Assembly: GCA_963666985.2 (NCBI GenBank) | Contig: CAXXIA010000001.1 | Coordinates: forward strand, 416,001-480,000 | Length of the DNA: 64,000 bases | Source: Spirochaetia bacterium | GTDB taxonomy: Bacteria > Spirochaetota > Spirochaetia > DSM-2461 | Direction: 5' to 3' | In this document: positions 1 through 6,186 of the stretch, one piece after another | How the letters are laid out: each line of letters opens with the position of its first letter | Position numbering within the stretch: position 1 is the first letter of the stretch | Program-made: the position numbers and the translations under genes | Notes under the pieces: generated by a model | The model's database searches: none | What the model saw: only the letters and a program-made list of their open reading frames with translations | What the model was told of the DNA's origin: nothing

Positions 1-620
1 CATCCGTTTTGTTTAGGATTGCGGTTAAAGATGGTGTAGACGGATATCCGGGAAATCGACTTTTTCAGACACGATACTCCCTGGACGACATGGCCGTTTT
101 TGTGGAAATTCAGGGTGAGTCAGATCGGCTGACCATCGTTAATCCGACGAATCATGCGTATTGGAATCTTAATGATGAATCTGTTTCATCGGTTTTGAAC
201 CATCGATTCAGGATTTCATCATCCTTATATTATCCGACTAATGGAGAAATGTTGCCGCAGAAACCCCAGCCTGTCTATGGGACTTCCTTCGATTTTAATT
301 CACCAAGATCCCTGAAAAAAGCCCTGGAGATTGATTGTCCCTCGGATCAGTTGAAAATCGCCAAGGGTTTTAATCATGGCTGGCGGTCATCTTCGTTGTA
401 TTGCGAGGGTAATAGAGGCGGGCTGCGGGTAACATCCGATGCCGATGATATTTGGCTTTATTCAGGTGGTTTCTTGGACAGAACCATGATACTAGAGGAT
501 GGTTCCTGCGCAAAACCGTCCTGTGCGTTCGCCGTTGAGCCCCAGAATATCGGAAGGCCGACCCTGCTGCACCCAGGAGAAATTTTTATACGCAGTATCG
601 AGTTCAAGTTGCAGAATTAG
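1..620 (+). CDS. galM: Aldose 1-epimerase (mutarotase), 5'-truncated by window edge
   Basis: Motifs DGYPGN, NPTNHAYWNL, TSFDF, GFNH and FAVEPQ. The frame is open to the window start. Confidence 0.85.
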   Translation, partial: SVLFRIAVKDGVDGYPGNRLFQTRYSLDDMAVFVEIQGESDRLTIVNPTNHAYWNLNDESVSSVLNHRFRISSSLYYPTNGEMLPQKPQPVYGTSFDFNSPRSLKKALEIDCPSDQLKIAKGFNHGWRSSSLYCEGNRGGLRVTSDADDIWLYSGGFLDRTMILEDGSCAKPSCAFAVEPQNIGRPTLLHPGEIFIRSIEFKLQN

Positions 621-688: not shown

Positions 689-713
689 AAAAACCCGACC
701 TAAATATCGGTTT
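689..713 (-). terminator. Probable intrinsic terminator closing the tRNA-Gly/repeat transcript
   Basis: The minus strand reads AAACCGAT-ATTTAG-GTCGGG followed by TTTTT, just past the last tRNA-end copy at 725. Confidence 0.5.
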
Positions 714-724
714 CCTTTTAAATT

Positions 725-2092
725 AGCGCCTGATGTTCTTTCTGAACTCAGCCGCTTCGTCTCGGTCATGTGCAAGCTGATGCTTGCCCGCGGCTCTCAA
801 CTTCAGCGCCTGATGCGATTTGGACGCTCAGGCACTTCGGCTCGACTATGCCCAAACGGTAGTTTGGTCGCAGTCCTCGCTCTCAGCGCCTAGATGGGAA
901 TCCCCTTCAGTCGGCCACGTCGTGTGGCCTCCTTCCGGGCCGCTGGTTCAGCTTGGCTCGGCTTCGTGCCTCACCTTGCTCTCTGTTCGGTCGCAAACAG
1001 CTTCACCCTTCGATTCCCATCAGGCTTACTCTGTAGATAAACGAAAACCCGCTTTAACGGGTTTTCTCTTGGGGTAGCGCCTGATGCGATTTGGACGCTC
1101 AGCCGCTTCGTTTCGGCCATGTGCAAGCTGATGCTTGCCCGCGGCTCTCAACTTCAGCGCCTGATGGGAATCCCCTTCAGTCGGCCACCTCGTGTGGCCT
1201 CCTTGCGGGCCGTCTCCGGCGGCTTCCGCCGACATCCTGTCGGCTCATCGCTCCTATTGTCGCGCACCGCCTCCGCTTCGATTCCCATCGGACTTACTCC
1301 GGAGAATAACGAAGCCCACCTTTCGGCGGGCTTCTAAGTGGTAGCGCCTGATGGGAATCCCCTTCAGTCGGCCACCTCGTGTGGCCTCCTTGCGGGCCGT
1401 CTCCGGCGGCTTCCGCCGACATCCTGTCGGCTCATCGCTCCTATTGTCGCGCACCGCCTCCGCTTCGATTCCCATCGGACTTACTCCGGAGAATAACGAA
1501 GCCCACCTTTCGGCGGGCTTCTAAGTGGTAGCGCCTGATGGGAATCCCCTTCAGTCGGCCACCTCGTGTGGCCTCCTTGCGGGCCGTCTCCGGCGGCTTC
1601 CGCCGACATCCTGTCGGCTCATCGCTCCTATTGTCGCGCACCGCCTCCGCTTCGATTCCCATCGGACTTACTCCGGAGAATAACGAAGCCCACCTTTCGG
1701 CGGGCTTCTAAGTGGTAGCGCCTGATGGGAATCCCCTTCAGTCGGCCACCTCGTGTGGCCTCCTTGCGGGCCGTCTCCGGCGGCTTCCGCCGACATCCTG
1801 TCGGCTCATCGCTCCTATTGTCGCGCACCGCCTCCGCTTCGATTCCCATCGGACTTACTCCGGAGAATAACGAAGCCCACCTTTCGGCGGGCTTCTAAGT
1901 GGTAGCGCCTGATGGGAATCCCCTTCAGTCGGCCACCTCGTGTGGCCTCCTTGCGGGCCGTCTCCGGCGGCTTCCGCCGACATCCTGTCGGCTCATCGCT
2001 CCTATTGTCGCGCGCCGCCTCCGCTTCGATTCCCATCGGACTTACTCCGGAGAATAACGAAAGCCTACCTTGCGGCAGGCTTTCTAATCAGT
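725..2092 (-). repeat. tRNA-Gly-linked tandem repeat array: 3 short (80 bp) and 6 long (187-191 bp) units, each ending in the tRNA 3' end
   Basis: agcgcctgatg (reverse complement of the tRNA 3' end) occurs at 725, 805, 885 (1-nt insertion), 1076, 1156, 1343, 1530, 1717 and 1904, then in the tRNA at 2093. Spacings are 80, 80, 191, 80, 187, 187, 187, 187 and 189. Confidence 0.97.
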
Positions 2093-2164
2093 AGCGCCTG
2101 ATGGGAATCGAACCCACGTCACGAGCTTGGGAAGCTCGGGTAATAGCCATTATACGACAGGCGC
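2093..2164 (-). tRNA. tRNA-Gly(CCC), CCA not encoded
   Basis: The minus strand reads GCGCCTG TCGTATAATGGCTATTAC CCGAGC TTCCCAA GCTCG TGAC GTGGG TTCGATT CCCAT CAGGCGC T. This gives an acceptor stem, a CCC anticodon, a T-loop and a U discriminator. Confidence 0.97.
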
Positions 2165-2178
2165 GAATTGTGAGGCCT

Positions 2179-2208
2179 ATCCTAGCGCCGGTTTTACGGA
2201 ATGGTCAA
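2179..2208 (-). promoter_or_regulatory. Putative sigma70 promoter of tRNA-Gly
   Basis: TTGACC-18 nt-TAGGAT on the minus strand, 14 nt upstream of the tRNA 5' end. Confidence 0.55.
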
Positions 2209-3562: not shown

Positions 3563-4474
3563 ATGTTCATAAACAATCGCCCCGACGGTTCTCCGGTGAA
3601 AGTACCCGGTTTCACCAAATTGCTGCCTTATTTAATGTCGACCAGAACGGAATCCACCATTTTCATGGAACAGATCGTGGAGATGGATAACGCCCTTAAG
3701 TTCATGCGGCAATGGAACACACGGAAGGAAAAGGACGATTGGCCGATAACGCCGATGCAGCTTTTTTTATGCGCGCTTGTCCGAACCGTGGCGCAGCGTC
3801 CTCGAATGAATCGATTTATCTCCAATAGACGGCACTATCAAAGGAATAATATTTCGGTATCGTTCGTAACGAAGAAGACTCTTTCCGACGACGGTTTGGA
3901 AGTGAATGTTATAATGCCTTTCCATCCCCACGATACACTCAAGGATGTCAACAAGCGATTTAAGCGCTTCATCGGAACGGCGAAAAGCGATGAAGGAAAC
4001 CGTTGTGAGAGTGATGTCGATATCATTGATAAACTGCCTCATTGGGCCGTCCGGGTATTCATCCGGTTTTTTAATTGGGCCGATCAGCATAATTTCATTA
4101 CACGGGGAATGATCCGAATGCTCCCCTTTTACAGCACGATGTTCGTAACGAATGTCGGTTCCATCGGCCTGGATGCTCCATTGCATCATAATTATGAAAT
4201 GGGCAATACGGGGATTTTTGCCGCTCTCGGAATCATTCGAAAGGAAAAAGTCATTCTTGAAGACAACAGCATTACCGAGAAATCCCGGATGGCAATCAGT
4301 TACACGTTTGACGACCGGATTGTCGACGGCATCTATTCCGGACGGGCAATGGCCATGCTGAAAGATTATTTGGAAAATCCGGAAAAACTGATGGAAAGGC
4401 CGGATATCGATCCGGTTAAATTGGATGAATTGGCTCTTACGGAAAAGGGCTGGGACTTATGGGACAAAAATTAA
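3563..4474 (+). CDS. Stand-alone 2-oxoacid dehydrogenase acyltransferase (E2 catalytic-domain-like) protein
   Basis: Motifs FVTNVGSIG and YTFDDRIVDG. There is no lipoyl domain. Confidence 0.75.
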   Translation: MFINNRPDGSPVKVPGFTKLLPYLMSTRTESTIFMEQIVEMDNALKFMRQWNTRKEKDDWPITPMQLFLCALVRTVAQRPRMNRFISNRRHYQRNNISVSFVTKKTLSDDGLEVNVIMPFHPHDTLKDVNKRFKRFIGTAKSDEGNRCESDVDIIDKLPHWAVRVFIRFFNWADQHNFITRGMIRMLPFYSTMFVTNVGSIGLDAPLHHNYEMGNTGIFAALGIIRKEKVILEDNSITEKSRMAISYTFDDRIVDGIYSGRAMAMLKDYLENPEKLMERPDIDPVKLDELALTEKGWDLWDKN

Positions 4475-6186
4475 TTCCTTGGCGGCGGTTCCAGCCCGAT
4501 AACAGCCCGGAAGAACTGATTTTTGATGAACGGACTCTGTATCGGACCGTGGCGGATTCTGCGGCCGCTTATCCTGATGTCATCGCCTGGGATTATATGG
4601 GGAAAACATCCACCTATCGGGAGTTTCTCTCCGACATCGACCGTACGGCCGAAGCCTTCGCCGCTCAGGGAATCCGGGCCGGAGATGTTATGACGGTGTG
4701 TCTGCCCAACTGCCCGCAGGCCCTTTTTGTCTTTTACGGTCTGAATAAACTCAGAGCGGTCGCTTCCATGATTCATCCTCTCTCCGTTACGGAAGAAATC
4801 CGGACGTTTTTGGATATTTCCCAGTCCAAATGGTTTTTAACGCTGGATGCTTTCTGGCCGCGGGTCGCGCCGGCCTTGGACGATTCTTCGGTTAAGCAGG
4901 CGTTTCATTGCCGAATCCAGGAATATATGCCCATTCCCATCAAGGTCGGCTTTTGGCTGACAAAGGGAAGAAAAATCAAAAAAGTGCCTTCCGAAGAAGG
5001 GATAGGCTGGAAGGCCTTAATGCGGCGAGAGGGTGAGAAATCTCTTGAAAAAGTCGCTTCCTCAATTTCCAAACCGGATGCCCGGGATTTGGCGGTAATT
5101 CTCTACAGCGGAGGAACCACGGGAACACCCAAGGGGATTATGCTTTCGGATTGGAATTTTAATGCTCTTACACAAGGTCTCAACTGGCAAATCGGCGGAG
5201 GCGTTCAGCCCGGTGATAAGGTGCTTTCCATTCTGCCGCTTTTTCACGGATTCGGTCTGGGCGTTACGGCGAATCTTTTTCTCACCCAAGGCGGGACTTC
5301 TCTGCTGGTGCCTCAATTTTCGGCCGATGCGGTTGTTCAGATGCTGATTAAGAAAAAACCGCAATTCATCGCCGGAGTGCCCACCTTATTTGAAGCCATG
5401 AGTGCTCATCCCAAAATTAAAGAAGTTGATTTTTCCACTCTCAAAGGATGTTACGGCGGCGGCGACAAAGTTCCCGAAACCGTAAAGAAACGGTTTGATG
5501 AGGTTATACGCGGCGGCGGAGGAACGACGGAACTGCAGGAAGGCTACGGTCTTACCGAAACGGTTACGGCCTGTACTCTGCTTCCGAGCGGACGATACAG
5601 GAAAGACTCCATCGGAGTTCCTCTTCCGGGCATTCATGCCAAAATCGTCGAGCCGGGAACTCATGTGGAATTGCCCTTCGGAGAAGAAGGCGAACTCTGC
5701 ATTTCCGGTCCTACCAACATGATTGGTTATCTCAACCGGCCGGAAGAAACGGCCGCTGTTCTTCAAACCCATAAAGACGGCCGGGAATGGGTTTTTACCG
5801 GGGATTTATGCTCCATGGATGAAGACGGCTTCATCTATTTTCGAATGCGTCTGAAGAGGATGATCAAGGTATCGGGAATCGCCGTGTATCCGCCCCAAGT
5901 GGAAGAGGCTCTTCGGCGGCATCCGGCCGTTCGGGATGTCTGCGTGATTGGCGTTCCCGATCCGTACAAGATGAATGTCATCCGCGCGTATGTTGTGCCC
6001 GCCGATGATGTTGCCGGAAACGATGATTTGGCCGAAGACATTATTTCTTCGGTTAAAGATATTTTGAATCGGTGGAGTCTGCCGAAAGATATCGTTTTCC
6101 GCAGTGAGCTGCCTCTTACCCGTGTCGGGAAGATTGCCTATACCGAATTGGAAAAAGAAGCCGCCGAAGATAAAGCCGCCGGTTGA
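4459..6186 (+). CDS. Long-chain acyl-CoA synthetase / AMP-binding protein
   Basis: Motifs YSGGTTGTPKG, QEGYGLTE, TGD and PLTRVGKI. Confidence 0.92.
   Translation: MGQKLIPWRRFQPDNSPEELIFDERTLYRTVADSAAAYPDVIAWDYMGKTSTYREFLSDIDRTAEAFAAQGIRAGDVMTVCLPNCPQALFVFYGLNKLRAVASMIHPLSVTEEIRTFLDISQSKWFLTLDAFWPRVAPALDDSSVKQAFHCRIQEYMPIPIKVGFWLTKGRKIKKVPSEEGIGWKALMRREGEKSLEKVASSISKPDARDLAVILYSGGTTGTPKGIMLSDWNFNALTQGLNWQIGGGVQPGDKVLSILPLFHGFGLGVTANLFLTQGGTSLLVPQFSADAVVQMLIKKKPQFIAGVPTLFEAMSAHPKIKEVDFSTLKGCYGGGDKVPETVKKRFDEVIRGGGGTTELQEGYGLTETVTACTLLPSGRYRKDSIGVPLPGIHAKIVEPGTHVELPFGEEGELCISGPTNMIGYLNRPEETAAVLQTHKDGREWVFTGDLCSMDEDGFIYFRMRLKRMIKVSGIAVYPPQVEEALRRHPAVRDVCVIGVPDPYKMNVIRAYVVPADDVAGNDDLAEDIISSVKDILNRWSLPKDIVFRSELPLTRVGKIAYTELEKEAAEDKAAG

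Follow-up and report, generated by a model that had tools for sequence, protein, structure and literature searches.

The minus strand behind the tRNA-Gly(CCC) gene of the window (the 64,000-nt stretch of DNA that was analysed) carries nine gene-less cassettes of two kinds, six L-type and three S-type. Together L and S are a variant, not found described, of a known but unexplained kind of repeat, the tRNA-linked repeats (TLRs) of Escherichia coli. As to how the array arose, the judgement is about evenly balanced on whether it is a TLR-kind cassette stack whose units would fold as single-stranded DNA, be inserted at the tRNA end by a putative trans-acting recombinase and afterwards change by slippage and reshuffling.

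Layout and anatomy of the array

Splitting the minus strand at the tRNA-end motif gave tRNA-Gly(CCC), L189, four copies of L187, S80, L'191, S'80, S80 and a terminator-like hairpin (Table 1), which is the order given in the original prediction. A tandem period of 187 with 5.1 copies and 98% matches was reported for the array by TRF. Identity to the tRNA end at the 3' end of the units extends over 17 nt in L and 11 nt in S, and the direct end of L' contains a one-base insertion. Each L unit starts with a terminator-like hairpin (6 of the 7 hairpin sites called in the array), followed by an inverted copy of the T-arm end of the tRNA (13 nt, and 17 nt in L'), a ~108-nt core and finally tRNA positions 57-73 repeated in direct orientation. 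The S unit consists of an interrupted hairpin and then a small terminal hairpin, lying between imperfect inverted and 10-11-nt direct copies of the target end.

Table 1. Positions of the array features in the window and of related loci elsewhere
Feature	Position	Strand	Remarks
Sigma-70-like promoter match	2179..2208	-	Upstream of tRNA-Gly; 9/12 consensus, consensus match only
tRNA-Gly(CCC)	2093..2164	-	CCA not encoded; array anchor; left end of ~10.7-kb island
L unit 1, 189 nt	1904..2092	-	Terminator-like hairpin 2084-2059, inverted tRNA arm 2037-2025, core ~2027-1921, direct tRNA end 1920-1904
L unit 2, 187 nt	1717..1903	-	Hairpin 1895-1872, inverted arm 1850-1838, direct end 1733-1717
L unit 3	1530..1716	-	Same sequence as unit 2
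L unit 4	1343..1529	-	Same sequence as unit 2
L unit 5	1156..1342	-	Same sequence as unit 2
S unit, 80 nt	1076..1155	-	Interrupted core hairpin followed by a terminal one, with an imperfect inverted tRNA-end copy as one arm and an 11-nt direct copy as the other; without terminator
L', chimeric L, 191 nt	885..1075	-	Hairpin 1066-1043; 17-nt inverted arm 1025-1009
S', 80 nt	805..884	-	Core hairpin differs; inner terminal hairpin common to S at 1155-1076
S, 80 nt	725..804	-	Core like first S; terminal hairpin like sister-array units
Terminator-like hairpin	695..710	-	At array end
Aldose 1-epimerase gene, 3' part	3..620	+	Last gene of the sugar-uptake island between both arrays
glmS-linked S arrays	L040 = G000:C2:973000-973320; L067 = G018		
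23S-linked S units	L042 = G000:C2:267338-271148; also C2:1048061		
IS1182-type insertions	L001 5615-7338; L003 ~4190-5915		

In the RNA fold of L, the inverted and direct arms pair into a helix that closes a branched core. The units had been predicted to be structured, and this was borne out: folding of one L187 unit beats 200/200 shuffles (z -5.0 as RNA, -4.0 as DNA), and the three S-type units of the array fold at z -3.2 to -4.6. Changes on both sides were found in 21 of 25 L core pairs among 16 copies of this genome, a level reached by 0/500 shuffles. Slid controls gave 29-43% paired cells versus 84% for the drawn structure, which was drawn by hand on the same alignment, so that the covariation test leans its way. 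For S, 12 of the 14 pairs covary. In the paired columns of 117 distinct L cores, A-G outnumbers C-T (195 vs 18) and G-T outnumbers A-C (68 vs 27), indicating that the tRNA-sense strand is the folding strand. The helices of L are compensated and its loop motifs fixed across about 60% mean column identity, and selection for recognition by something is therefore implied. The comparison with Rfam that had been proposed was carried out to E 5 on the window stretch, where tRNA was the only family at a meaningful score, accompanied by one chance-level match; three related loci likewise yielded only tRNA.

The divergence among units had earlier been read as a polarity in age, which does not hold. The identical copies are units 2-5 and not the tRNA-proximal one. 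The 5' domain of L' shares 34-36% identity with the neighbouring L units and 71% with a copy behind tRNA-Met, and its 3' domain is 90-93% identical to the neighbours. Judged from these identities, L' is a domain chimera and not an aged L copy. Two more within-locus unit pairs in relatives show a similar domain split, and it is on these named cases that the reading rests; the family-wide correlation of 5' and 3' domain identity (r -0.03) was computed with truncated rows included and could be an effect of saturation.

A damaged 43-nt 3' fragment of tRNA-Gly lies 10.7 kb downstream, outside the window (G000:C1:407344-407386), and is followed by an IS1182-type element and a sister array of the order L, S', S, S, S. 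Because the tRNA and the damaged fragment bracket it, the window array lies within an integrase-less sugar-uptake island of ~10.7 kb (G000:C1:407344-418164, that is, L001 7345 to window 2164), which encodes an aldose epimerase, an ABC sugar transporter, AraC and a DUF5107-TPR gene. An island spacing of 8.9 kb recurs in sequencing runs X1-X3. The IS1182-type element occupies the terminator position of tRNA-linked units both at the Gly fragment and at Arg(TCG), and about ten or more copies of it are suggested by X1/X4 contig depth.

Strain differences were seen in a 16.2-kb contig from runs X2/X3 (one study), in which the whole 2.2-kb sister block is missing and the join falls within the tRNA-end repeat. 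The flanks are 2-4% diverged, a degenerate S remains at the sister site in both strains, and the contig is also without one 80-nt S unit of the window array. The empty sister site could equally represent a deletion between 8-9-nt repeats. As to the original prediction that serial addition of cassettes, rather than slippage, built the array, the empty site agrees with gain or loss of whole cassettes at a tRNA-end repeat, but slippage or unequal crossing-over suffices for the four identical L units.

Hosts and ends of the two modules

An iterated profile found 25 L copies at E<0.01 in this genome, which were assigned by hand to 14 tRNA or tmRNA hosts (7 are the Gly copies); some are parted from the assigned host by an IS or an island. 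The assigned host was the unique best among 49 ends for the direct arm of 22/25 copies and for the inverted arm of 12/25. Direct arms of 18-19 nt occur at the Asn, Leu(TAA), Glu, Pro(CGG), Val, Arg(TCG), Met and Leu(GAG) hosts of this genome. Among relatives, the L model matched in 27/40, and a same-strand tRNA was found upstream in the fetched DNA for 70 of 100 distinct L copies, several of the others having too little flank. For 48 relatives' copies lying at most 120 nt from a tRNA, the mean exact match to the host was 12.3 nt for the inverted and 14.7 nt for the direct arm, compared with 6.4 and 5.5 nt to other tRNAs. These matches support the expectation that the same cores would be found at other tRNAs, each time with ends fitted to the tRNA in question. 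Of 41 genome records with the L motif, 34 are titled as spirochaetes and 1 as Syntrophus.

Of 59 units examined, 47 had a direct arm that could be located, and in 37 of these it starts at C56; this one-base junction recurs across many tRNA types and genera. It is fixed only to within one base, because the C at 56 could be encoded by the element. The sequence 3' of the direct arm resembles the post-tRNA terminator in 21/46 cases (above the 99th null percentile). Where the inverted arm was placed, in 41/47 units, its end falls at positions 61-72 and never beyond 72. Among 50 units, 9 arm positions changed in both arms, 79 in the inverted arm only and 25 in the direct arm only; with 9 two-sided against 104 one-sided positions, the arms seldom change together away from the tRNA.

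Several L loci depart from the common arrangement. At tRNA-Gly of genome G010, the T-stem allele found in both L arms is one position away from that of the tRNA present there (L005). Genome G005 has 35 L matches, and all 13 inspected lie within a MITE-like repeat of ~290 nt with terminal inverted repeats, away from tRNAs (loci L082, L104-L115); this repeat hosts S cores in G004 and G007. In G012 (G012:C1:1746638-1747156, L081/L117), a four-unit L array with a period of 136-138 nt has no terminators between its units; the direct arm of one unit and the inverted arm of the next make up a fold-back palindrome whose sequence has ceased to match the tRNA. A ten-unit array stands behind tRNA-Met in the single-contig genome G001 (G001:C1:565337-567059, L087/L116), in which profile scores sort the units into the blocks a, b, c×4, a×3, b. 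In the present genome, a tmRNA 3' fragment lies 39 kb from the tmRNA and is followed by an L unit (L002 4160-4190; G000:C1:~798170), which was displaced by an island, as an integrase adjoins the tmRNA.

The S model gave 40 matches in this genome and is present in 8/40 relatives. Genomes with S include G004, G006, G007, G010, G011, G013 and G018, and the well-assembled G001, G005, G009 and G012 are without it. Across the phylum, 1 of 140 drawn genomes matched, with only 41 candidates per genome scored. In this genome, G011 and G013, S lies immediately against tRNA-Gly genes, and it is found with end duplications of 7-11 nt at tRNA-Gly, glmS, an ABC permease, a solute-binding gene, 23S-distal sites and another repeat. 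An end duplication of at least 7 nt was present in 39 of 107 distinct S rows (tandem neighbours included); 13/107 lie at an ORF end and many others are embedded in larger composite repeats. In two genera, S arrays lie directly 3' of the glmS stop codon, with arms matching each glmS allele. This neighbourhood is that of the Tn7 attachment site. Three further S copies, of two core types, lie a few bases behind the apparent 3' end of 23S rRNA.

L and S had been described as two unrelated modules, a view that was not supported: at tRNA-Leu(TAA), Pro(CGG) and Leu(CAA), the L-type units themselves contain S cores. Since S cores sit inside L-type units, L and S form one toolkit and are not independent. 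The hybrid at tRNA-Leu(CAA) is conserved: an L-type inverted arm is joined there to an S core and closed by a short direct end, and the units often stand in tandem (L035, L276, L279, L280). A further metagenome scan yielded five loci, namely four units of the tRNA-Leu(CAA) type and one in a MITE-like repeat. S works like a miniature of the L design and falls short of the 18-19 bp by which TLRs are defined.

Cassette insertion and alternative origins

The proposed cassette stack takes as its basis what can be read in the sequence: anatomy, host-matched arms, a fixed junction, covariation, chimerism, and presence or absence among strains. On the exposed tRNA-sense strand, the inverted arm would pair with the direct arm and rebuild a double-stranded copy of the target. 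Strand exchange would then set a segment of tRNA end, terminator, inverted arm and core behind the tRNA, and the gene would stay intact; for L the exchange would take place at 55/56, within the T loop, and for S close to 63/64. Tandem amplification would lead to adjacent identical units, and swapping of hairpin domains between units and loci would give rise to L'. Folding as DNA, insertion rather than deletion and the enzyme itself are what we infer here.

The loops bear on whether the folding molecule is DNA or RNA. A C(GNA/AAA)G loop closes 20/35 S terminal hairpins versus 0/46 terminator hairpins. DNA mini-hairpins number 19 on the sense versus 1 on the antisense strand of 35 S regions (shuffle mean 1.6, maximum 7), and 10 versus 0 in the E. 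coli tyrT repeats; in the window array, 0 perfect ones were found. GCGNAGC/GCGNNAGC mini-hairpins are far more stable as DNA than as RNA (PMC13037366). The first hairpin loop of L is purine-to-A closed in 42/70 cores and GNRA in only 2/70, counted on cores not retrieved by the search pattern that inflates GATA/AATA loops. Strand bias and DNA-type loops across families favour cassettes that would fold as single-stranded DNA.

The search for a mobilising enzyme covered several classes. The Y1 transposase domain PF01797 is absent from this genome (93% complete) and occurs in 9/40 relatives with no evident tracking of L or S. The IS91 zinc domain, present in 14/40 relatives and absent from the S-rich genomes G006 and G007, does not track them either. 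Near S/L clusters, 58 genes were scanned; they have housekeeping or transport roles or belong to ordinary IS elements, with no mobilising gene among them. None of the 7 PF00589 matches of the genome falls in the array or in the 10.7-kb island. The lone reverse transcriptase, the lone IS110 and the 7 tyrosine recombinases of the genome were considered as the enzyme and set aside, none lying within an array. No circular form of the units was seen, and no copies occurred in the viral contigs and the phage or plasmid records scanned; two pattern matches in viral contigs failed the L model and were taken as chance. With respect to neighbouring genes, a truncated IS91-like transposase gene lies between L and S modules downstream of tRNA-Met (L036 1220-1963), and an unannotated 334-aa ORF overlaps the start of the lone reverse transcriptase gene (L227 3112-4035), near which no L/S match occurs.

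A broader form of the cassette reading is possible, though on balance doubtful: L and S, with the E. coli TLRs included, might be the visible cargo of a retargetable single-stranded DNA insertion system, in which the inverted arm would serve as target guide for a putative enzyme. If true, a single enzyme could serve nearly every kind of target, whether a tRNA, a tmRNA, an rRNA spacer or the end of a conserved gene. Should the cassette reading itself hold, an enzyme would insert DNA at sites set by a pairing arm of 10-20 bases, leaving the target gene unbroken.

Alternatively, the units could primarily be structured small RNAs that arise by terminator read-through, are cut at the duplicated tRNA end and bind CsrA, with amplification tuning the dose; this is considered unlikely. 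The second hairpin loop of L fits the CsrA motif A(N)GGAN in 56/70 cores and the third in 32/70, and csrA is present in this genome and in 34/40 relatives. Against this, the third loop reads ACGAN, without GGA, in 30/70 cores and in every L unit of the window array, the S core loops of the window array contain no GGA, and L also occurs in three genomes that yielded no csrA, namely G002, G013 and G014 (71%, 79% and 95% complete). Weak T-runs after the L hairpins of this array, the contact of S with the tRNA end without a terminator and the closed arm helix of the RNA fold would suit an RNA, but the loops are of DNA type and not GNRA. Moreover, orthologous tRNAs are patchily occupied, a point that also speaks for mobility: the tRNA-Gly of G010 has L behind it, that of G011 and of G013 has S, and in G001, G003, G005, G009 and G012 both modules are missing there. 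For E. coli, PMC8144298 reports that the rrA, rrB and rrF TLRs arise by terminator read-through, are processed and bind CsrA in vitro, and also that the 19 tRNA-operon TLRs scored below 0.01 as CsrA binders. The CsrA-like GGA loops may leave a possible RNA role to the units. If the RNA reading holds, they would be a candidate class of CsrA-binding RNA in the spirochaete phylum, from which no such class is known to have been described.

Less probable again is an origin involving no dedicated enzyme, whereby hairpin-promoted template switching copies the cores and writes the inverted arm from the neighbouring tRNA end, while slippage and RecA expand and shuffle the units neutrally. The failure to find a mobilising gene agrees with it, as do the fold-back palindromes of G012, which are unlike tRNA, and the inverted arms, decayed to varied lengths. 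Identical blocks and chimeras are likewise expected from unequal recombination. Nevertheless, the one-base junction shared by many tRNA types and genera argues against it, and so do the compensated helices and fixed loop motifs, with the selection for recognition that they imply.

That the four identical L187 copies are partly an assembly over-count, the true array being shorter, is very improbable and would touch the copy number only, not the mosaic: no single contig among those listed spans the array, and the depth at L-L junctions (4.7 vs 3.2 in X4, 6.6 vs 5.2-6.4 in X1) is about 1-2x that of the flanks, depth not being copy number, but L-L tandem junctions occur in public contigs of two studies, a 217-nt contig (187+30) crossing one with 0 differences and a 219-nt contig wrapping onto itself in the second study, and tandem L arrays of ten and four units exist in G001 and G012. 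Runs X1 and X4 may come from the source sample and are not independent support. The array stands, but its count of four identical L187 units would rest on the assembly, unconfirmed by a spanning contig.

Comparison with known systems

Two kinds of repeat were considered and rejected. In a tRNA-primed retroelement, the primer-binding site would be complementary to the terminal 18 nt including CCA, and the inverted arm of L never passes position 72. In a CRISPR array, constant repeats would alternate with spacers that are each unique; here the intervening sequences, in their turn, are repeated and conserved.

The duplicated tRNA 3' end, the intact tRNA and the tandem accretion of units resemble the attL/attR boundaries of tyrosine-integrase islands, and tRNA-targeting tyrosine integrases include a class with T-loop crossover. 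The units differ from such islands in having neither integrase nor cargo, in one core family being found at many tRNAs and in the additional copy of the target that is inverted. Small imperfect hairpins, one folding strand (as a sequence signature only) and mosaic intergenic arrays are shared with the REP/REPIN/BIME-RAYT and IS200/IS605 systems. The ends of IS608 have the order guide, hairpin and cut-site, which the S order of inverted arm, hairpin and end recalls. In contrast to these systems, no Y1 transposase is found here or tracking the repeats, and the target ends are duplicated and copied into the element. The CTXphi attP site and the integron attC site are folded single-strand recombination sites; as in these, the folded strand of the cassettes would rebuild a double-stranded site, and cassette arrays accumulate behind one anchor, but here the cassettes are without genes, the site sequence varies with the host gene and the array has no integrase gene next to it. 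With the CsrB/RsmZ sponges the array may have in common GGA in hairpin loops along its length, and its host encodes csrA, whereas each L here has one GGA loop, the S core loops have none, and terminators separate the units.

The closest likeness is to the TLRs, and L is, by its sequence features, the spirochaete version of these E. coli repeats. According to the main text of PMC8144298, TLRs were first described in 1978, their function was still unknown in 2021, and they are defined as lying in a tRNA or rRNA operon downstream of the gene, with 18-19 bp of their 3' end identical to the upstream tRNA end. That main text uses none of 'inverted', 'mobile' and 'duplicat'; its supplements may show more of TLR structure. 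No description of the spirochaete L/S family was found in the literature searched, most subscription papers including Rudd 1999 being outside its reach, and the accessible parts of PMC9897764, PMC4383910, PMC3733652, PMC3184786 and bioRxiv 10.1101/2024.07.17.603846 do not describe it.

The array has the TLR location, downstream of the gene in a tRNA/rRNA operon, and consists like TLRs of gene-less structured tandem units behind a tRNA that end in a direct copy of its 3' end (PMC8144298, main text). L comes within one base of the 18-19 bp, with 17 nt in the five intact Gly units, where CCA is not encoded. S has 10-11 nt, is also found at protein-gene ends and is not filed as a TLR. The K-12 description of one to five units per locus is exceeded by 6 L and 3 S here and by 10 L in G001. 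Unlike the E. coli TLRs, each L has a terminator, and there is the second module S, with its 10-11-nt duplication and non-RNA targets. The direct copy spans 56/57 to 73 in L and 58 to CCA in the tyrT units. Under strict filters the L model gave 0 matches in K-12, and the RtT/RttR family of Rfam, a further candidate, gave no covariance-model match in the window stretch (scan to E 5).

The link to the tyrT/rtT repeats made in the original prediction is upheld by the K-12 tyrT sequence itself, read directly, in which the units also show an inverted arm pairing with the direct copy, together with GNA triloops on the sense strand. To the TLR question the locus offers handles in the T-loop junction, the host-tailored inverted arm, the empty-site strain, the chimeras and a module that is found at protein-gene ends.
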